From assembly GCA_016191115.1 (NCBI GenBank), contig JACPPG010000035.1, positions 2,681 to 66,680 on the forward strand: a stretch of DNA of 64,000 nt. Reading direction: 5' to 3'. Every line of letters starts with the position of its first letter. Positions within the stretch are counted from its first letter, which is position 1. The notes under the pieces are model-generated. The model made no database searches. It saw only the letters and a program-made list of their open reading frames with translations, and was not told the DNA's origin. Below are positions 7,123 to 63,677 of the stretch, piece after piece. Origin of the DNA: Planctomycetia bacterium (GTDB taxonomy: Bacteria > Planctomycetota > Planctomycetia > Pirellulales > JACPPG01). A program made the position numbers and the translations under genes.

Positions 7123-9267
7123 TTACGCGCTGCGGAAAAAATTCTCCAGCGCCGCCAGGTTGAGGTTCATGCCACGGCCACTGGATGTGGTCGTGTTGTT
7201 TCCAAGTGTCGCGTCGCTGGTGTTATCGGTTCGCATCGCCAGCAGTAGCGCATTGGCAACCGATTGCGAGTCGACCTGATCGGCTGCCGCGGTTGGCGCG
7301 CTGGTCGAAGTCAACTGTGTCGCGTTTGTCCGCACGCTGCGCATAACGCCGATGTTCACGCCGGTGAACAGCAAGCCGCCGCGCGTGATGGCGAACGTGC
7401 GACTAGGCTGCGTGCTGCCGTCGGCCATGACCACGGCCACCTGGTATTGGCCGGTCCGCAGTCCGTCTTGCACGTCGAAACGGTAGTTCCCGTGCGAGTC
7501 GGTCTTGTCCGTGGCAATGACATCGCCCTCGTCGGCGTCGATGAGTTGGACCGTTCGCCCCGCCAGCCCCGGTTCGCCGCGGTCGATCCGTCCGTCCCGA
7601 TCGAGATCGGCGTACACGTTGCCGGTCACGGCGGCCGAGAAGAAGAAGGCGTTCGACTGCAGGTTGGTCAGGTCGGTGTTGCGGCGGATGATGTCCGTAA
7701 GCGTCGTGTGCTCGAGCTTGTCCAGCGTCGTCCCGGAGAAGGTCCTCTCGTACCAGTAGCGGTCGCCGTCGCGCAACCGCTCGAACTGGTCGGAGATAAT
7801 CGCCTTCAACGTCGGACCGACGCTTGCGCCGCGCACGTGATCTTCCGCCAGCGCGCCGACCCACAGATCGATGTTGTTGACGCTGCCGTACAGTTGCTTG
7901 AGCTGTGCTTGCACCTCGGGATCGGAAGTGATCTGGGAAAAATCGGTCACCTTCGCCAACCCGTAGGCCTGTCGTACCGAGTTATAGTCGGCCAATCCAT
8001 GGTCGCGGCCGCGCTGAATGTTCAGGCTGGCCAGGTCCAGGCCGCCGGCGCCCGGAGGTCCAAACAGGAAGTTGCGGACGCTGTTGACGATGGTGTTGTC
8101 GATCTCCGAAGCTGGGTCCGACGCCAGGTATTTGAGCACCGGGTCGATGCCGTTGGCGGTGAGCTCCGGCGGATTGAAGAACGCCTGGCTCAACGGAATC
8201 CCATCGGCGACTTCGTTTCCCTGGTTGTCCAGGAACTCGACGTCGTTTCCCAGCATCGTGTGCCCAACCCGGAACGCCGCCGCGGAGAACTCGTTGGCGA
8301 TGCCCGGATTGACCTTCGCGTTGTAGCCGGCATAACGGTCCAGCGCGCCTTGTCCGAGCAGGGCCGGCAGCCACTGGTTGTAGGTGATCGACTGGATTTC
8401 GGCGATCACGATGGCGCGGGCCTTCTGGTAGACCTGCTCGTCGTTGAGCGTGGGATCGCCGGCGGCGATTTTGCCGGCCCAGTAGTTGTGCTCGCGGACG
8501 AACAGCGTTTGCATGGCCGTGAGCTCGATGTTCTCGTTGGCGCGGACGTCGCCGGCCGCGAACAGTTGGCTGTCCGGCACGATGCGCGAATCGTTAGCCA
8601 TCGGTAGGGCTCCACCGGGCAGATAGTCCGTATTGTTGTACGGCAGCATGTCGCCGGCGCTGGTTTTCAGCTTGCCGCCCTGGAGCGTCCGCAGGGCCTT
8701 CGCCGTGGCGGTGTCCGAGCCGTAGACCATCGAGCCGTCCATCCAGGACGTGATCGTGTTGACCTGCTGGCGGGCATTGGTCGTGCCCGTCGCCGGATCG
8801 AACTTGGAGCGGTTCAGCTTGATCGTCTGCGTGCCGATCCCGTTGGGGTCGAACTGGGGATCGCCGGTGGGCACGGCCACGTTGAAGGGCTGGGCGGGGC
8901 TGGCGCCCGTCGTCAAGTCGAGATCGTGATCGATGAACTGCCCCCAGACGTAGATCATCGCCGACAGGTTCCGGTCGTTGATGATGTCCGCGTCTCCCTG
9001 ATCGGCGATCACGTTGCTGATCTCCCGGGCGCTGGGCCGATTGGCGCCGGCCGGCGCGGAAAGTCCGTCGGCATAAGCGGCCGGCGCGGTGCGCAACAAG
9101 TCGGTGCCGGCACTGCCCCAGGTGGGGTGCAAGAGGTTGTTTCCGCTGCCATCGATGCTCCTGGTGGCAAGCACCGACGTCAGGGCGGCCGTCAGGTCGG
9201 TCGCCAACAATGTTCGACTCTCGAGCTCTTCGATCGATAACTTCACATGCTTTTGCTTCGTTCTCAT
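7123..9267 (-). CDS. Secreted animal-type (peroxidase-cyclooxygenase superfamily) heme peroxidase with C-terminal SdrD B-like domain
   Basis: N-terminal IEELESRTLLA (LEPRxLL-type) motif; RSIDGSGNN, WGQFIDHDL, AGDVRANEN, FRVGH and NIQRGRDHGL motifs; tail GNVYADLDRDG..GEPGLAG..TDSHGNYRF. Confidence 0.9.
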   Translation of the reverse strand: MRTKQKHVKLSIEELESRTLLATDLTAALTSVLATRSIDGSGNNLLHPTWGSAGTDLLRTAPAAYADGLSAPAGANRPSAREISNVIADQGDADIINDRNLSAMIYVWGQFIDHDLDLTTGASPAQPFNVAVPTGDPQFDPNGIGTQTIKLNRSKFDPATGTTNARQQVNTITSWMDGSMVYGSDTATAKALRTLQGGKLKTSAGDMLPYNNTDYLPGGALPMANDSRIVPDSQLFAAGDVRANENIELTAMQTLFVREHNYWAGKIAAGDPTLNDEQVYQKARAIVIAEIQSITYNQWLPALLGQGALDRYAGYNAKVNPGIANEFSAAAFRVGHTMLGNDVEFLDNQGNEVADGIPLSQAFFNPPELTANGIDPVLKYLASDPASEIDNTIVNSVRNFLFGPPGAGGLDLASLNIQRGRDHGLADYNSVRQAYGLAKVTDFSQITSDPEVQAQLKQLYGSVNNIDLWVGALAEDHVRGASVGPTLKAIISDQFERLRDGDRYWYERTFSGTTLDKLEHTTLTDIIRRNTDLTNLQSNAFFFSAAVTGNVYADLDRDGRIDRGEPGLAGRTVQLIDADEGDVIATDKTDSHGNYRFDVQDGLRTGQYQVAVVMADGSTQPSRTFAITRGGLLFTGVNIGVMRSVRTNATQLTSTSAPTAAADQVDSQSVANALLLAMRTDNTSDATLGNNTTTSSGRGMNLNLAALENFFRSA

Positions 9268-58313: not shown

Positions 58314-59867
58314 TCACTCGCCGTGGGATCCAGCCGCGCCGTCGCTGGCTTCAATCGCTCGCCACAGCTTGAGCGGATGGTCGGTCTGAATCAGGTCGAT
58401 GCCCCAGTCAATCGCCTGGCGATAGGCGTCGACGCCGATGCCGCTGGGGGCGTCGGAGAAAACGCGAATCGAGCGGGCGTGACAATGGTCGATGTAATCC
58501 TTGGAGAGGGCCCGCCACGGTGTGTCGACTGCATACGGCGCAAGCCGCTCGGCGAGCGTGTCCACGGCCGCGGTCGAGCCCGCGGGCGGCAAGTGGCGGA
58601 TGCGCGGATTGATGGCTTTCAGCTTTTCGAGATAGGCCGGGCTCTGATAGACGACCGTCCGCTCCACCAGGCCATGCCGCGAAACGGCCTCGGCGAGTGC
58701 TTCGGGCGTGATGTCCTTGGCGTCGAAATAGAGACCCATCGAAGGCGGGAACTTTGACAGGTATTCCGTTAATTCCGGAACATTTGCGTGGGCGAACGGC
58801 TGGCCGAACCAACGCCCGGCGTCAAGCTTGAGAACCGCTTGCGAGGTGGCCTGTCGAATCGCTCCGCGGCCGGTCGTAGTGCGGTCGAGATTGCCGTCGT
58901 GCAAGAGAAAGAAGCCGCCGTCCTTGGTGGTGCGGACATCGATCTCGACGTAGTCGGCGTGCAGTCGGGCCGCCTTTGCCAGGGATTGCAGAGTATTCTC
59001 CGGCGCATAGCGCGAAGCGCCGCGGTGTGCCGCGTATTGCACGTGCGGGCGCTTCACGCGCTTGGCGATCGCGTGAACGACGAACTCCTCCGGCACTTCC
59101 GTGCGCACCATGTCGGCGCCGGCGGCGATCAGGCTGTCCCATCTCTCAGGTCCATCGCGCGGTCCGCACGCGTCGGCAACCACGGCCACGCCCAGGGTGT
59201 GGAAATCGCGACAGACGTCGGCCGTCGCTTGAACGGCGGCCACGTTCACCGCGGCCGGCTTGGCGTCCTCTTTCCAGAACTTGACCGGCGCCTCGGGCGA
59301 CCAGGATTCGAGCGTCGCCAGCCCGCCGGCCGCACGTTGGCGGACGCTCGCGAGCACTTTCGGCTCGCCCGCGACCAACACGCGATCTCCGAGCGACGCT
59401 TCGCCGAGCTCACGAACGAATCTTTGTGGGTCGACGTCCCGGCAAGCCACGATCAGGCCGATCTTGTCCTTGACGGCGGACAGGCATTCGGGCAACGTCA
59501 TGATCCGCTCCCCGGCGAATCTCGGCGCAAAGCCAACCCCCAAGTCGACGGCCTGCAATTCGGCGAGGGTGTAGCTGGTCAGCAGCCGGCCGCCCGGCGA
59601 GGCGCCATCCAGTTGAGCGGCATCAAAGACGATATGGCGGCCATCTTTGGTGCGCCGCACCTCGACTTCGAGCCACTCGAGCCCGTCCTCGATCGCCATC
59701 TGGATCGGTCGGACCGTATTGGAGGGGGCCTGCTGCGTGTAGCCGCCGGGTACAACGACGCGGGCCCGCCCCGGCGGGGCAAAAAGCCCGCCCGCATCCG
59801 GCGCGGCCACGGCGCTCGTCGCCAACAGCGTGAAAACCATGCTGGTCAGGGCGAATATACTGAGCAT
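58314..59867 (-). CDS. Secreted tandem glycerophosphodiester phosphodiesterase (degenerate first domain)
   Basis: Domain 2 has AHRG..PENT..EIDVRTTKDG..HD; domain 1 has VPGG..APSNT..EVEVRRTKDG..FD (catalytic His residues absent). Confidence 0.88.
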   Translation of the reverse strand: MLSIFALTSMVFTLLATSAVAAPDAGGLFAPPGRARVVVPGGYTQQAPSNTVRPIQMAIEDGLEWLEVEVRRTKDGRHIVFDAAQLDGASPGGRLLTSYTLAELQAVDLGVGFAPRFAGERIMTLPECLSAVKDKIGLIVACRDVDPQRFVRELGEASLGDRVLVAGEPKVLASVRQRAAGGLATLESWSPEAPVKFWKEDAKPAAVNVAAVQATADVCRDFHTLGVAVVADACGPRDGPERWDSLIAAGADMVRTEVPEEFVVHAIAKRVKRPHVQYAAHRGASRYAPENTLQSLAKAARLHADYVEIDVRTTKDGGFFLLHDGNLDRTTTGRGAIRQATSQAVLKLDAGRWFGQPFAHANVPELTEYLSKFPPSMGLYFDAKDITPEALAEAVSRHGLVERTVVYQSPAYLEKLKAINPRIRHLPPAGSTAAVDTLAERLAPYAVDTPWRALSKDYIDHCHARSIRVFSDAPSGIGVDAYRQAIDWGIDLIQTDHPLKLWRAIEASDGAAGSHGE

Positions 59868-60037
59868 CGGCCAACTAGCGCGCGGAGGTGGGCAACGAGA
59901 TGCAACCGGGGCAATAGCCCGAACATAAGAGCGACCCGAGCGCGGGTCAACCGGCTCGGCGCATAGAAAGGCCGCCCGATGCGCATCGCATCCCGGGCGG
60001 CCTTGCACCGGTCAATCGTAGGGCCCAGCGTCGTGCG

Positions 60038-60502
60038 TTAGCACTTGCCGCAGCAGCAGGGCATGTTGTTGAAGCACACGCAGCACGAGCAGCCGGCTTC
60101 CATGCACTTCGTCATGCAATCGCAGCAGGCCTGAACCATCTCGCAGCAGGCCTTGTCGCCGCTGGTGCACGTGATCGTGCAGCCGTCCTTGGTCATGTCG
60201 CACTTGCAGGTGCACATGGCCATGTTGCACTGGCACATGACCATGCCGTTCATCATCGCGCAGCAACTGCACATGCCCTCGCACATCATGCGGACCATGT
60301 TCTGCAACATGGCGCACGACATCTCGTCGTCGCACTTGCAGTGGATTTTCATGCCGCCCGAGCACTTTTCCATCTTCATCGTGCAACGCGGCACCATGCA
60401 CGCGCCCATGCTGGGCATGGACATACTGGGGGCGGGCATGGACGAGCCCATCGTCCCCATCGGGTTCATCATGCCGCGATCCATCATCATCATGCTGGAC
60501 AT
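60038..60502 (-). CDS. Extremely Cys/Met-rich small protein of unknown function
   Basis: AAGGAGGA SD before ATG 60502; 154 aa with about 31 Cys and 34 Met by hand count; strong GC3 codon bias (TGC, AAG, GAC). Confidence 0.85.
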   Translation of the reverse strand: MSSMMMMDRGMMNPMGTMGSSMPAPSMSMPSMGACMVPRCTMKMEKCSGGMKIHCKCDDEMSCAMLQNMVRMMCEGMCSCCAMMNGMVMCQCNMAMCTCKCDMTKDGCTITCTSGDKACCEMVQACCDCMTKCMEAGCSCCVCFNNMPCCCGKC

Positions 60503-60681
60503 CGATTCCGTCCTCCTTGTTGCCAAGCTGGCCGCGACTCAAGCACTGCCGTGCAAGCTGGAAAAGTCGCAGCGATCGTCAGCGTCGGCTGTGAGTTATG
60601 GCCTACCTCCAGGAAGTTTCCGGTCGGCAAGCGTCCTTGGATCCCAGGCCTCCCGCACTCGGGTCAGCGAACTATCCACCC

Positions 60682-60709
60682 AATCTAGCGATCGCCTCCA
60701 AAGTTGCAA
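60682..60709 (-). promoter_or_regulatory. Putative sigma70-type promoter for the Cys/Met-rich gene
   Basis: Minus strand TTGCAA-16 bp-TAGATT. Confidence 0.4.
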
Positions 60710-61002
60710 GTCCTTTTGCACCAATCAGTTGTATCATCACAAAGCGCATCGCCTAGCTGACCTATCTGCTAGCGTCACACGGTGGGAATCGAAGCGCCGT
60801 TTAACGCTAATCGCGCATTCAACCTGGCTTAAAGCGCTGCGCCCAACGCAGTTTTCCTATCTGTCCGATTCTGACGGTTGAATTGCTTAATCCGACTTCC
60901 GCGTGCCGTCCGATACGGCTTACAGCCCCCTCCTGCCGCGCGCCACCTCCGCGCCCCGCCCATACGCCTCGATCACCGTTCTCCCCAGAATTTCGCACTC
61001 CC

Positions 61003-62382
61003 ATGGCCGCAAAGCGCACCCAACAACTGTTGAGCCTGATCGGCAACACGCCCCTTCTGAGAATCTCCTCACTCGACACCGGCTGCTGCGAGTTGCTCGT
61101 CAAGCTCGAGTCGCAGAATCCCGGCGGATCGATCAAGGATCGCATCGGGCGATCGATGATTGAAGCCGCCGAACGCGCTGGTCATGTGGGCCCCGGCTCC
61201 ACGCTCGTGGAAGCGACGGCCGGAAACACGGGACTGGGGCTGGCGCTTGTGGCTGCGCAGAAGGGGTACCGCCTCATCCTCGTCATCCCCGACAAGATGA
61301 GCCAGGAGAAGGTGTTCCACCTCAAGGCGCTGGGCGCCACGGTCGTCATGACGCGCAGCGACGTCGGCCGAGGCCACCCGCAGTACTATCAGGACCTGGC
61401 CGAGAAGATCACCCGCGAGACGCCATGCGCCTTCTACCTGAACCAGTTCAGCAACCCGGCCAATCCGCACGCGCACGAGACGACCACCGCGCCCGAGATT
61501 TGGGAGCAAACCGACAACCGCTTGGACGCCGTGGTGTGTGGCGTCGGCTCGGGCGGAACGATCACCGGCATAAGCCGGTACTTTGCCCGCGTCGCGCCGC
61601 ACGTCGAGATCGTGCTGGCCGATCCACAGGGGTCGGTGTTGGCCGAGTACATCCAGACGGGCAAAGTCGGCGAAGCCGGCTCCTGGCTCGTGGAAGGGAT
61701 CGGCGAGGATTTCATTCCGCCGCTTGTCGATCTGTCACGCGTTCGCTGCGCCTACACGATTCCGGATGCCGAGAGCCTGGTCACCGCCCGCGACTTGCTG
61801 CGGCTGGAAGGGGTGCTGGCCGGCTCCTCGTCGGGGACGCTCGTGGCCGCCGCGCTGCGGTATTGTCGCGAGCAGACGACGCCCCAGCGCGTCGTCACGT
61901 TCGTGTGCGACTCGGGCAACAAGTATCTGTCCAAGATGTTCAACGACTATTGGATGGCCGACCAGGGGCTGCGACGCGGCCCGGCCTTCGGCGACCTGCG
62001 CGACGTGATCGTCCGCCGCTTCGCCGACGGCGGCGTGGTGAGCATCGGTCCTGACGAGCCTTTGAACATTGCCTACTCCCGGATGCGACTGTACGACGTG
62101 TCGCAGTTGCCGGTGCTGGAGAACGCCCGCGTCGTGGGCATCCTTGATGAATCGGATTTGCTTTTGGCCGCTGCCGGCGATCCGCGCGCCTTCGGCCGCG
62201 CGGTGCGCAAGGTGATGACTACGCGCCTGGAAACGGTCTCGCGTCACGCGCCGGTCGAAGAGTTGCTGGCGATCTTCGACGCCGGGAAAGTCGTCATCGT
62301 ATTGGACGAAGAGGGATTTCACGGATTGATCACGCGCGTCGACGTGCTCAACCACTTGCGTCGTCAAAACAAAGCCGCGTAG
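61003..62382 (+). CDS. cbs: Cystathionine beta-synthase with C-terminal CBS domains
   Basis: IGNTPL, KLESQNPGGSIKDR, EATAGNTG, GVGSGGT and DSGNKYLSK; tandem CBS domains (SQLPV..GILDESD). Confidence 0.92.
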   Translation: MAAKRTQQLLSLIGNTPLLRISSLDTGCCELLVKLESQNPGGSIKDRIGRSMIEAAERAGHVGPGSTLVEATAGNTGLGLALVAAQKGYRLILVIPDKMSQEKVFHLKALGATVVMTRSDVGRGHPQYYQDLAEKITRETPCAFYLNQFSNPANPHAHETTTAPEIWEQTDNRLDAVVCGVGSGGTITGISRYFARVAPHVEIVLADPQGSVLAEYIQTGKVGEAGSWLVEGIGEDFIPPLVDLSRVRCAYTIPDAESLVTARDLLRLEGVLAGSSSGTLVAAALRYCREQTTPQRVVTFVCDSGNKYLSKMFNDYWMADQGLRRGPAFGDLRDVIVRRFADGGVVSIGPDEPLNIAYSRMRLYDVSQLPVLENARVVGILDESDLLLAAAGDPRAFGRAVRKVMTTRLETVSRHAPVEELLAIFDAGKVVIVLDEEGFHGLITRVDVLNHLRRQNKAA

Positions 62383-62393
62383 GGAGTCGCGAT

Positions 62394-63677
62394 ATGGACA
62401 TGCTTCAGGCGGGGTGCAACGGACTGCGAGATTCGACGCAAACGGGGCTTGTGCTGCACGTGGATCCGCCGAAGCGCCGACATGCCTTTGCGACGCGCGC
62501 GATCCATGCCGGCCAATCGCCCGACCCGACGACCGGCGCGGTCATGACGCCCATCTATGCCACCAGCACGTATGCGCAGCAATCGCCGGGCGTACACAAG
62601 GGATACGACTACGGCCGCTCGCACAATCCGACGCGGTTCGCCTTCGAGCGTTGCGTGGCTGACCTGGAGAACGGCACGGCCGGTTTTGCGTTCGCCTCCG
62701 GCCTGGCGGCCATTGCGACCGTGCTCGATCTGTTGCAGCACGGCTCGCACGTCGTTGTGTGCGATGATTTGTACGGCGGCACGTATCGCTTGTTCGAGCG
62801 CGTCCGCCGGCGCAGCGCTAATCTGGACTTCACGTACGTCGACCCGACGAAGCTTGCGTCGCTCGAAGCGGCCATCCGGCCCAACACCCGCATGGTATGG
62901 ATCGAGACCCCGAGCAATCCGCTGTTGAAGCTGGCGGACCTGGAGGCGATCGCCGCGACCGCGAAGCGGCGCGGGCTGGCGGCCGTGGCCGACAATACGT
63001 TCGCCACCCCCTTTGTGCAGCAGCCGCTGGACTGCGGTTTCGACATCGTCGTCCATTCGGTGACGAAATACATCAACGGCCACTCCGACATGATCGGTGG
63101 GATCGCCGTTGTCGGCGAGAACGCCGAGCTGCGCGATCGGCTGGGCTTTTTGCAAAACGCGCTAGGGGCCATCAGCGGCCCATTCGACAGCTTCCTCGCA
63201 CTGCGGGGCGTGAAGACCCTGGCCTTGCGCATGGAACGACACTGCGAGAACGCGCTCGCCATTGCCGAGTGGCTGGCCGCGCGGGCGGAGGTGTCGCGCG
63301 TCTACTATCCCGGCCTGGCGAGCCACCCGCAGCACGCGTTGGCGCGGCGGCAGATGAAAGCGTTCGGTGGCATGGTCTCCGTAGTGCTGTCGGGCGGAGA
63401 GTCCGCGGCGCGCCGTTTCCTCGAGCGGTGCAGCGTGTTCACGTTGGCCGAAAGCCTCGGTGGCGTGGAAAGCCTGGTGGAGCACCCCGGATTGATGACG
63501 CACGCCTCGATCCCCGCGGCGCAGCGAGCCAAAATCGGCATCGACGACGGGCTCGTGCGATTGAGCGTGGGCGTGGAAGCGATCGAGGATCTGATCGACG
63601 ATCTGGACCAGGCGCTAGTCGTGCGGCGGAAGTCGAACGCCATGTTCAATGGCGCTAGCGGCCGTGCTGCAAGCTAA
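62394..63677 (+). CDS. Cystathionine gamma-lyase/synthase (Cys/Met metabolism PLP family); start may be downstream
   Basis: TRAIHAGQ, YGRSHNPT, DDLYGGT, ETPSNP, DNTFATP, HSVTKYINGHSD and LAESLGGVESL. Confidence 0.92.
   Translation: MDMLQAGCNGLRDSTQTGLVLHVDPPKRRHAFATRAIHAGQSPDPTTGAVMTPIYATSTYAQQSPGVHKGYDYGRSHNPTRFAFERCVADLENGTAGFAFASGLAAIATVLDLLQHGSHVVVCDDLYGGTYRLFERVRRRSANLDFTYVDPTKLASLEAAIRPNTRMVWIETPSNPLLKLADLEAIAATAKRRGLAAVADNTFATPFVQQPLDCGFDIVVHSVTKYINGHSDMIGGIAVVGENAELRDRLGFLQNALGAISGPFDSFLALRGVKTLALRMERHCENALAIAEWLAARAEVSRVYYPGLASHPQHALARRQMKAFGGMVSVVLSGGESAARRFLERCSVFTLAESLGGVESLVEHPGLMTHASIPAAQRAKIGIDDGLVRLSVGVEAIEDLIDDLDQALVVRRKSNAMFNGASGRAAS

Follow-up and report, generated by a model that had tools for sequence, protein, structure and literature searches.

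Dedicated polymers or proteins serve bacteria as stores of carbon, nitrogen, phosphorus and iron, and to our knowledge neither a protein reserve of assimilated sulfur nor an RNA that senses sulfur status at the level of sulfate has been described. The copper storage proteins Csp1 and Csp3 are cysteine (Cys)-lined four-helix bundles, of which Csp3 is cytosolic, and bacterial metallothioneins (SmtA/BmtA, MymT) are roughly 50 to 60 amino acids (aa) in length. In plants, the levels of sulfur-rich seed storage proteins (2S albumins and delta-zeins) follow sulfur supply, reciprocally to those of sulfur-poor ones. IssA of Pyrococcus is proposed to store sulfur together with iron as thioferrate (PMC5524996), the YTV cell-wall proteins are Cys-rich and restricted to planctomycetes (PMC8567305), and the sul1 motif is an orphan RNA of 5' untranslated regions (5' UTRs) before sulfate transporter genes, with ligand unknown (PMC5737381). 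Here we describe a protein rich in Cys and methionine (Met), designated CMP1, and a conserved 5' leader RNA, designated R1 after its model, that precedes the gene. Both lie in a 64,000-nucleotide stretch (the window; contig JACPPG010000035.1, positions 2,681 to 66,680) of Planctomycetia bacterium GCA_016191115.1, hereafter the home genome (label G000), which also encodes a paralogue, CMP2. Coordinates refer to the window unless otherwise stated.

We consider it possible, at a probability of roughly 0.4, that CMP1 holds Cys and Met as a reserve or buffer under the control of sulfur status. The features on which this reading draws are as follows.

60038..60502 (-), CMP1 coding sequence, Cys/Met-rich protein: 154 aa plus stop, 31 Cys and 34 Met; supported by homologues
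60511..60518 (-), Shine-Dalgarno (SD) sequence AAGGAGGA: 8 nucleotides (nt) ahead of the ATG at 60502
60398..60502 (-), codons 1-35, disordered low-complexity Met/Gly/Pro/Ser tail: predicted confidence (pLDDT) below 50 at residues 1-13 and 15-35
60041..60391 (-), codons 38-154, predicted folded core of two beta-hairpin/helix/beta-hairpin repeats: AlphaFold2 block, pLDDT 83-94
60598..60670 (-), conserved 5' leader RNA motif (model R1): 45.1 bits, E 7.6e-7; covariation

Like Csp1 and Csp3, CMP1 appears to place many Cys and some Met residues at core positions of a folded scaffold, a placement predicted from the model. It differs in its predicted order of elements, E-E-H-E-E-E-E-H-E-E (eight strands, E, and two helices, H), which is not a helical bundle, and in having no Pfam match; CMP proteins also contain far more Met and occur in a context of sulfur metabolism, not copper. 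Membership among the copper storage proteins was rejected for want of a four-helix bundle and a family match. With the metallothioneins, CMP1 shares a high Cys content, CC, CxC and CxxC spacings (read from its sequence) and an almost complete lack of aromatic residues (one Phe, no Tyr, no Trp). It differs from them in its 154-aa length, its 22% Met and an autonomous fold that appears to be retained in Cys-poor relatives. Metallothionein membership was likewise rejected: there was no Pfam or NCBIfam match, and the fold does not appear to be dictated by metal, the AlphaFold2 core reaching a pLDDT of about 90 without it.

By analogy, CMP would resemble the 2S albumins and delta-zeins in function, as a sulfur-rich protein that tracks sulfur supply next to sulfur-poor proteins with the opposite response; those storage proteins are eukaryotic, secretory and unrelated to CMP in sequence and fold. 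IssA is a prokaryotic protein proposed to store sulfur, as is proposed here for CMP, but it would do so as inorganic thioferrate, whereas CMP would hold sulfur in its own residues. The YTV proteins are Cys-rich and planctomycete-restricted, as is CMP, but are envelope proteins with YTV motifs; CMP1, with no Tyr and no hydrophobic N-terminal segment, was not assigned to them. The sul1 motif resembles R1 in being an orphan 5'-UTR RNA tied to sulfur-related genes; R1 differs in its two near-identical hairpins and its gene set, and had no Rfam match at E ≤ 1. We conclude that CMP is not a member of the metallothioneins, the copper storage proteins or the YTV proteins, and that it may still function in the manner of Csp or of the sulfur-rich storage proteins of plants.

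Cys plus Met (C+M) account for 65 of 154 residues (42.2%) in the translation of the CMP1 open reading frame (ORF). The hand counts of the original prediction (31 Cys, 34 Met, about 42%) agree with this exactly, and its description of the SD as strong is borne out by AAGGAGGA 8 nt ahead of the ATG; an AAGGAG-like SD was seen by eye at the matching place in most of 83 homologue leaders. GC content at the three codon positions is 0.32/0.52/0.94, compared with third-position values (GC3) of 0.77-0.83 in four neighbouring genes, and the CMP1 frame is taken as the coding frame because of its GC3 of 0.94. GC3 and conservation across hundreds of homologues rule out an artefact from non-coding sequence or from a wrong frame. 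All 31 Cys are encoded by TGC, and the charged residues are balanced (Lys plus Arg, 12; Asp plus Glu, 12). Across the 4,073 home-genome ORFs that passed a composition filter, taken as a crude proteome, the median C+M was 3.2% and the 99.9th percentile 11.5%; CMP1 (40%) and CMP2 (25%) had the two highest values. No hydrophobic N-terminal segment was found in CMP1 (judged by eye, no predictor run), so a signal peptide is probably absent, as had been predicted, and a cytoplasmic location appears likely. A secreted or lipoprotein reading was rejected: the "MGAC" near residues 32-35 is not conserved and an h-region is absent. Note that the long His- or Asp-rich ORFs at 60012-60542 (-) and 60153-60881 (+) are by-products of ATG/TGC periodicity on other frames. 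Note also that a simple ORF caller chose the antisense frame in 63 loci, and that the family may be mis-annotated by gene callers.

A search of 5.8 billion proteins returned at least 750 relatives at E ≤ 0.01, nearly all about 155 aa long and either labelled "hypothetical" or unlabelled. Among 50%-identity representatives in an every-protein scan, 153 relatives were found at E ≤ 0.001 and 84 at E ≤ 1e-10. An even sample of the phylum contained the family in five of 401 genomes, including the home genome. Homologue loci were examined in the best 80 of 215 stretches encoding a relative (one genome per species). Almost all of these are titled Planctomycetota (Pirellulales, Planctomycetaceae, Gemmataceae, Isosphaeraceae), and the carriers include Singulisphaera acidiphila DSM 18658, Singulisphaera sp. 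GP187 and Limnoglobus roseus PX52. The family is spread across orders yet patchy. Locus L084, titled as a gammaproteobacterial metagenome-assembled genome (MAG), and L079, from a Planctomycetota MAG, have the same neighbour clusters around the CMP gene; the gammaproteobacterial label is probably a case of mis-binning, not of spread beyond the phylum. No Pfam family scored above threshold for CMP1 (only DUF2218, at E 0.094) or for its relatives, and there was no NCBIfam match for CMP1. A sequence-profile search of CMP1 against the Protein Data Bank (PDB) gave chance matches only (E 1.8), and the ESM Atlas held unnamed planctomycete clusters only, with no named cluster for the core.

Composition varies widely within the family. 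Among 148 members of 140-180 aa, Cys ranges from 2% to 25% and Met from 1% to 33%, with a median C+M of 33% and no correlation between the two fractions (r about 0). The extremes are represented by P0121 (32 Cys, 3 Met), P0202 (10 Cys, 60 Met) and P0243 (5 Cys, 55 Met). CMP2 (G000:C30:78276-78743 (-), equivalent to L007 9998-10468 (-)) is 54% identical to CMP1 and of a Cys-rich, Met-poor type (20.5% Cys, 4.5% Met). The distant, longer relatives P0163, P0194, P0200, P0173 and P0191 keep the scaffold motifs at ordinary composition, with Leu, Val, Ala or Ser at the Cys/Met positions of CMP1. Since these relatives keep the scaffold, the fold does not need Cys or Met, and the Cys/Met composition of the others looks selected. 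The swing from Cys-rich to Met-rich members points to composition, rather than to one chemistry, as the common denominator. The CMP family is large, uncharacterised, real, conserved and extreme in composition.

AlphaFold2, run on an alignment of 28 sequences, gave a CMP1 model with a mean pLDDT of 77.8 and a pTM of 0.68. Predicted core elements are E39-47, E50-57, H60-73, E78-84, E87-93, E98-103, E107-113, H117-135, E139-144 and E147-153, and the duplication of the core is also visible by eye in the alignment consensus. A Foldseek search of the PDB gave no match to the model at E ≤ 0.001, and the best score in an exhaustive VIA-align search (Z 5.6) was within the noise range stated for the tool. 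No known fold can be assigned to the model, which is not proof of a new one. Cys and Met probably fill alternating inward strand positions and buried helix faces, as judged without inspecting coordinates, and the corresponding core positions are hydrophobic or small in Cys-poor relatives (alignments A1 and A2). Pair log-odds were calculated from 33 representatives at less than 70% identity. Those for Met were +1.16 bits with Leu (M:L), +1.27 with Phe (M:F) and +0.71 with Ile (M:I); Met positions behave like ordinary hydrophobic positions, exchanging with Leu, Ile and Phe. Loading Cys and Met into hydrophobic positions and a disordered tail would be a way to maximise sulfur on a soluble fold. 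The tail varies in length and sequence (alignment A1), with M1, M6 and R9 nearly invariant. Its N-terminal motif M-S-x-x-M-M-M-[DE]-R (residues 1-9; 60476-60502) is conserved, unlike the next 30 residues, and may serve as a tag for degradation or recognition, a point of interest for a reserve protein.

The CMP1 gene lies head-to-head with two genes of sulfur amino-acid metabolism.

60503..61002 (no strand), divergent spacer between CMP1 and the cystathionine beta-synthase (CBS) gene: 500 bp
60883..62382 (+), CBS-type enzyme: Pfam PALP plus two CBS domains; likely start near 61003
62394..63677 (+), Cys/Met-metabolism pyridoxal phosphate (PLP) enzyme of the cystathionine gamma-synthase/lyase type: Pfam PF01053, 1.8e-147

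Pfam domains and homologue alignments uphold the predicted head-to-head arrangement with CBS and cystathionine gamma-lyase (CGL) genes at a distance of about 500 bp. Homologues align to the CBS protein only from residue 31-48, which places its start near 61003 and sets the spacer at 500 bp. An enzyme with PALP and CBS domains followed by a Cys_Met_Meta_PP enzyme constitutes a reverse transsulfuration pair by Pfam. The CBS gene scores under the equivalog cut-off of TIGR01137 (407 versus 510 bits) and the second gene passes the synthase model NF005871 (526 bits, cut-off 513), so that the second enzyme may be either a lyase or a synthase.

To describe gene neighbourhoods, ORFs were called in the 80 loci and clustered, and recurrent clusters were named via Pfam; sulfur genes were counted by fixed tblastn criteria within about 6 kb of the CMP gene. 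At least one sulfur gene was present in 32 of the 80 loci, or 30 if sulfatases, which are too common to count, are set aside. The tally was CBS 12, CGL 9, Rrf2 8, CysA 6, CysT 5, CysW 5, DUF2292/OscA-like 4, Sbp 3, cysteine dioxygenase (CDO) 3, rhodanese 2, sulfatase 2 and YeiH 1. For comparison, by identical criteria, the share of the home genome located 6.2 kb or less from such a gene is 4.2% (1.3% without sulfatases). Binomial tails for the enrichment are tiny but should be considered overstated, since the loci are related. It counts for more that these sulfur genes are arranged in several distinct ways and come from several lineages. Recurrent neighbours of CMP comprise CBS, CGL, sulfate ABC transporter genes, Rrf2, CDO, DUF2292 (weakly OscA-like), rhodanese and a YeiH-type transporter. 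In the home genome, CMP1 adjoins the sole CBS gene, and CMP2 is convergent to sbp-cysT-cysW-cysA-DUF2292-DUF1559, whose transporter parts pass the NCBIfam cut-offs for sulfate systems. Conserved linkage to Cys/Met genes, which had been put forward as a check on the original prediction, was thus found in part: sulfur genes recur in 32 loci, whereas the divergent CBS-CGL pairing is kept only in the closest relatives (nine loci). A link between the CMP gene and sulfur amino-acid metabolism is supported beyond the CMP1 locus.

Other arrangements contain no obvious sulfur gene. One (AP_endonuc_2 ... CMP ... beta-lactamase-SDR-GFO) was found in about nine loci, and another (ECF sigma - two small ORFs - CMP - DUF4142 - EF-hand - CHAT) in about ten loci of a single clade (L044, L055, L056, L058, L062 and related), most members of which have the leader RNA. 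Among the 30 recurrent cluster representatives and 112 immediate neighbours there was no P-type ATPase, CsoR, MerR, ArsR or copper-chaperone/metallochaperone gene; the sole candidates of a metal type are one RND/HlyD pair, one OEP plus Nramp-like pair and the DUF4142 gene of one clade. In Gemmataceae and Isosphaeraceae, where CMP has no RNA motif, an Rrf2 gene is often near CMP (eight loci). The best NCBIfam matches of the Rrf2 proteins are CymR and IscR, both under the cut-off. These proteins are of two kinds, with a C-x-C-x-C-type Cys triad (L039, L041, L065, L076) or with none (L038, L070, L079, L085). Such a triad is found in the Fe-S-binding regulators IscR and NsrR, and CymR is without these Cys residues. 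CDO-like genes (L039, L075, L010 and others) precede a gene for a large FAD/NAD(P)-binding-type protein, to which the CDO-like protein is fused in L010 (704 aa).

The leader RNA was found by a k-mer screen upstream of homologues, in which three ordered, strand-specific words lay at about -180 to -100. It is a 75-nt element composed of hairpin 1 (GCYGACCCG-loop-CGGGAGGC), a variable U-rich linker and hairpin 2 (GCUGACUGG-loop-CCAGAGG) inside an outer stem, and the two hairpins are near-identical, with a common internal-loop pattern. In 32 leaders, 84.4% of cells were paired, versus 38-54% with the partners slid; double changes were found at 10 of 17 pairs, and the covariation score was reached by none of 500 shuffles. 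For 55 R1 matches, in an alignment fitted to the model, the values were 88.4% versus 38-53%, 14 of 17 pairs and none of 500 shuffles. No Rfam 15 family, including sul1 and the SAM/SAH riboswitches, matched the leader at E ≤ 1 in 59900-61200 of the window or in nine whole loci. These data point to a structured, covarying cis-regulatory leader RNA on the sense strand, with riboswitch status as a candidate assignment. Promoter-like hexamers lie just upstream of it.

60682..60709 (-), promoter-like TTGCAA-N16-TAGATT: about 12 nt upstream of the RNA motif; putative

The hexamers at CMP1 line up with TTGACA/TATAAT-like hexamers of other loci; a consensus promoter scan did not flag them (8 of 12 consensus matches).

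R1 was found upstream of CMP in 41 of the 80 loci, always on the sense strand and no more than 260 nt ahead of where the protein match starts. These loci carry Pirellulales-, Planctomycetaceae- and Planctomycetia-type titles, and none is titled Gemmataceae or Isosphaeraceae. CMP leaders from the latter two families had no common motif by k-mer or alignment beyond AT-rich TCAACTT-like boxes. The home genome contains three copies of R1, located ahead of CMP1, CMP2 and the DUF1559 gene that follows sbp-cysTWA-DUF2292. Four other genomes contain one to four copies each, ahead of CMP (including a third CMP copy in one genome), DUF1559 genes and one Porin_O_P gene, and within genomes CMP is the commonest gene after R1. 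One of 150 other genomes of an even phylum sample had R1, weakly (two of 151 with the home genome), so that R1 is patchy like CMP. A pattern scan of metagenome contigs, made independently of the CMP protein and with near-duplicate contigs retained, gave 38 matches, which were followed by these genes.

CMP: 10/38
Porin_O_P-like porin: 12/38 (10 by tblastn, 2 by eye or Pfam)
Porin_5-like porin: 4/38 (1 by Pfam, 3 by eye)
Lipoprotein/BON/DUF1559 operon: 6/38
Unresolved: 3/38; too little sequence: 3/38

R1 therefore ties the CMP gene to anion porins and to DUF1559 operons beside sulfate transporters, and can be regarded as a previously undescribed candidate for an orphan riboswitch whose gene set is small and coherent. 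Some of the proteins encoded after R1 are nearly free of sulfur: two DUF1559 proteins of 424 and 482 aa contain one Met (the initiator) and two Cys each, and a Porin_O_P protein of 476 aa contains no Cys and two Met. Their loci are listed below.

L097 1716-2987 (+)
L040, minus strand, second ORF after the motif at 9087-9164
L103 225-1652 (-)

A near-absence of sulfur is the signature expected of sulfur-starvation proteins, a comparison not controlled against paralogues. R1 ends 16-38 nt ahead of the start codon at seven DUF1559, lipoprotein and cytochrome genes and farther away at three others, and at DUF1559 genes a small hairpin that includes the SD was seen by eye right after it. At CMP, R1 ends about 95 nt ahead of the start, with more hairpins between, some of them with U-runs. 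Because the distances and hairpins differ between uptake genes and CMP, the expression platforms are taken to differ. Folding of the CMP1 leader was uninformative (z -0.76), with no significant alternative structure, and the direction of switching is not readable from the sequence.

Three metatranscriptome runs contained 54, 6 and 124 contigs of relatives of the CMP coding region, mostly at 80-95% identity, and one piece differs from the CMP1 coding region at two of 102 positions. These contigs are pieces of coding region that do not cover the leader and give no level, strand or ends. They give a weak hint that members of the family are transcribed in rhizosphere and peat, with DNA carry-over a possible source of contigs. 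One DNA run contains nearly the whole stretch, is perhaps its source, and gives no independent support. The strong SD, the GC3 of 0.94 and the metatranscriptome contigs are signs of high CMP expression.

The gene downstream of CMP1 (58314-60008 (-)) encodes a protein of 564 aa that has a hydrophobic segment at its N-terminus and two regions of the glycerophosphodiester phosphodiesterase (GDPD) type; among the 80 homologue loci, its only match is the home locus itself (L001). One further element lies past the CMP1 stop codon; a terminator scan did not list it.

59970..60002 (-), GC-rich hairpin, possible transcript end: 36 nt past the CMP1 stop; no T-run confirmed

If CMP1 is a regulated reserve, it would be a soluble, autonomously folding cytoplasmic protein whose hydrophobic positions and floppy N-terminal tail are filled with Cys and Met. 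It would be produced in bulk when Cys and Met are plentiful, keeping free cysteine low, and degraded once sulfur runs short. In Pirellulales-type genomes the signal would act via the structured 5' leader RNA; in Gemmataceae and Isosphaeraceae its part may be played by an Rrf2 regulator encoded next to CMP. The neighbours and the shared leader RNA suggest that the CMP gene belongs to a sulfur-status regulon, and the same RNA may be used reciprocally, on for CMP and off for uptake genes. We infer each of these three elements: sulfur as the signal, the reciprocal use of the RNA and storage itself. The original suggestion of a storage protein or a metal/sulfide sink is upheld in part, in its tie to sulfur (32 of 80 loci, CMP2 beside a sulfate transporter, a common leader RNA); both mechanisms are candidates. 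We also considered, as a rather doubtful extension, a sulfur-economy module in which a new riboswitch class would sense a sulfur-status metabolite (for example APS/PAPS, O-acetylserine, cysteine, sulfide or thiosulfate) and oppositely switch CMP hoarding and sulfur-poor porin/uptake genes.

Several observations weigh against a reserve. About 30 free thiols would bind soft metals regardless of any storage role. The close alignment has 52 invariant or nearly invariant columns, of which 21 are Cys and 5 are Met, and in the same set of 33 representatives the pair log-odds for Cys were +1.66 bits with Cys (C:C), -0.53 with Met (C:M) and -0.13 with Val (C:V). The check for interchange proposed with the original prediction thus found no free swap of Cys and Met; Cys columns appear largely fixed as Cys, the pattern expected of ligand residues, so that the result leans toward ligands, with storage still compatible. 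No sulfur gene is nearby in 48 of the 80 loci, and no protease or mobilisation partner was found for CMP. R1 also precedes genes that look like starvation-type genes, and a response in the same direction would mean that CMP is made at sulfur scarcity, a poor fit to storage; the arrangement fits storage only if the platforms act oppositely. The R1-controlled uptake proteins, pooled, contain 2.25% C+M compared with the 3.2% median of home ORFs, a difference that is modest and uncontrolled for family. Finally, the literature, with incomplete coverage that leaves absence unproven, gave no account of a Cys- and Met-rich planctomycete protein or of a bacterial sulfur-storage protein; nothing relevant was found on DUF1559 and sulfur.

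The main rival is a Csp-like store or sink for thiophilic metals or metalloids, in which core Cys thiolates and Met thioethers would hold Cu(I), Zn, Cd, As, Se or Te. The strongly conserved Cys columns speak for it, as do the CC, CxC and CxxC spacings and the inward-facing Cys and Met that the alignment and model suggest for strands and helices. Only with Cu(I) and Ag(I) can Met and Cys replace each other as ligands, and this would agree with the Met-rich variants and with a tail of MxM type. The R1-linked Porin_O_P relatives weakly match a porin of selenite/tellurite operons (34.9 bits, cut-off 150). We nevertheless judge it unlikely: apart from the few candidates named above, metal-resistance genes are missing from the 30 recurrent clusters and 112 immediate neighbours, the contexts are those of sulfur genes, the predicted fold is confident without metal and appears to be kept in Cys-poor relatives, and CMP is not homologous to metallothioneins or Csp.

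Less likely still is a carrier or buffer of sulfide or sulfane sulfur, whose adjacent thiols would hold persulfide or polysulfide from CBS/CGL or from sulfate reduction and so avert loss or toxicity of H2S. CBS and CGL also produce H2S, and CMP1 adjoins both; in addition, a rhodanese gene is directly upstream in two loci, CDO and a YeiH-type transporter occur nearby, and Cys positions are fixed and often adjacent. Such a purely inferential role would leave the Met loading and the Met-rich, Cys-poor variants unexplained, and no persulfide dioxygenase, SQR or CstR/BigR-type regulator was seen among recurrent neighbours. We regard as very improbable a translation-coupled sulfur sensor, in which the 65 Cys/Met codons would report the charging of Cys- and Met-tRNA and the protein might bind the leader RNA, repressing uptake genes and itself. 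A two-repeat protein and a two-hairpin RNA do co-occur, both being rare (five of 401 and two of 151 genomes), composition varies on a kept scaffold, and CMP is the gene that most often follows R1 within genomes. However, CMP1 is not basic and matches no nucleic-acid-binding family, its strong SD, promoter and GC3 indicate an abundant protein and not a regulator, and Gemmataceae and Isosphaeraceae have CMP without R1 upstream.

Hundreds of CMP members occur in planctomycetes of soil, peat, groundwater and freshwater, and storage of sulfur in these proteins is an idea that is directly testable. Should CMP instead store metal in a Cys/Met-lined core, the Csp principle would have been arrived at a second time by an unrelated protein. 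The leader RNA also offers a first clue to the function of some proteins in the very large DUF1559 family. If the sulfur-economy module is true, its protein would be the first bacterial one for sulfur storage, and its RNA the first riboswitch that responds to inorganic or early-assimilatory sulfur status.

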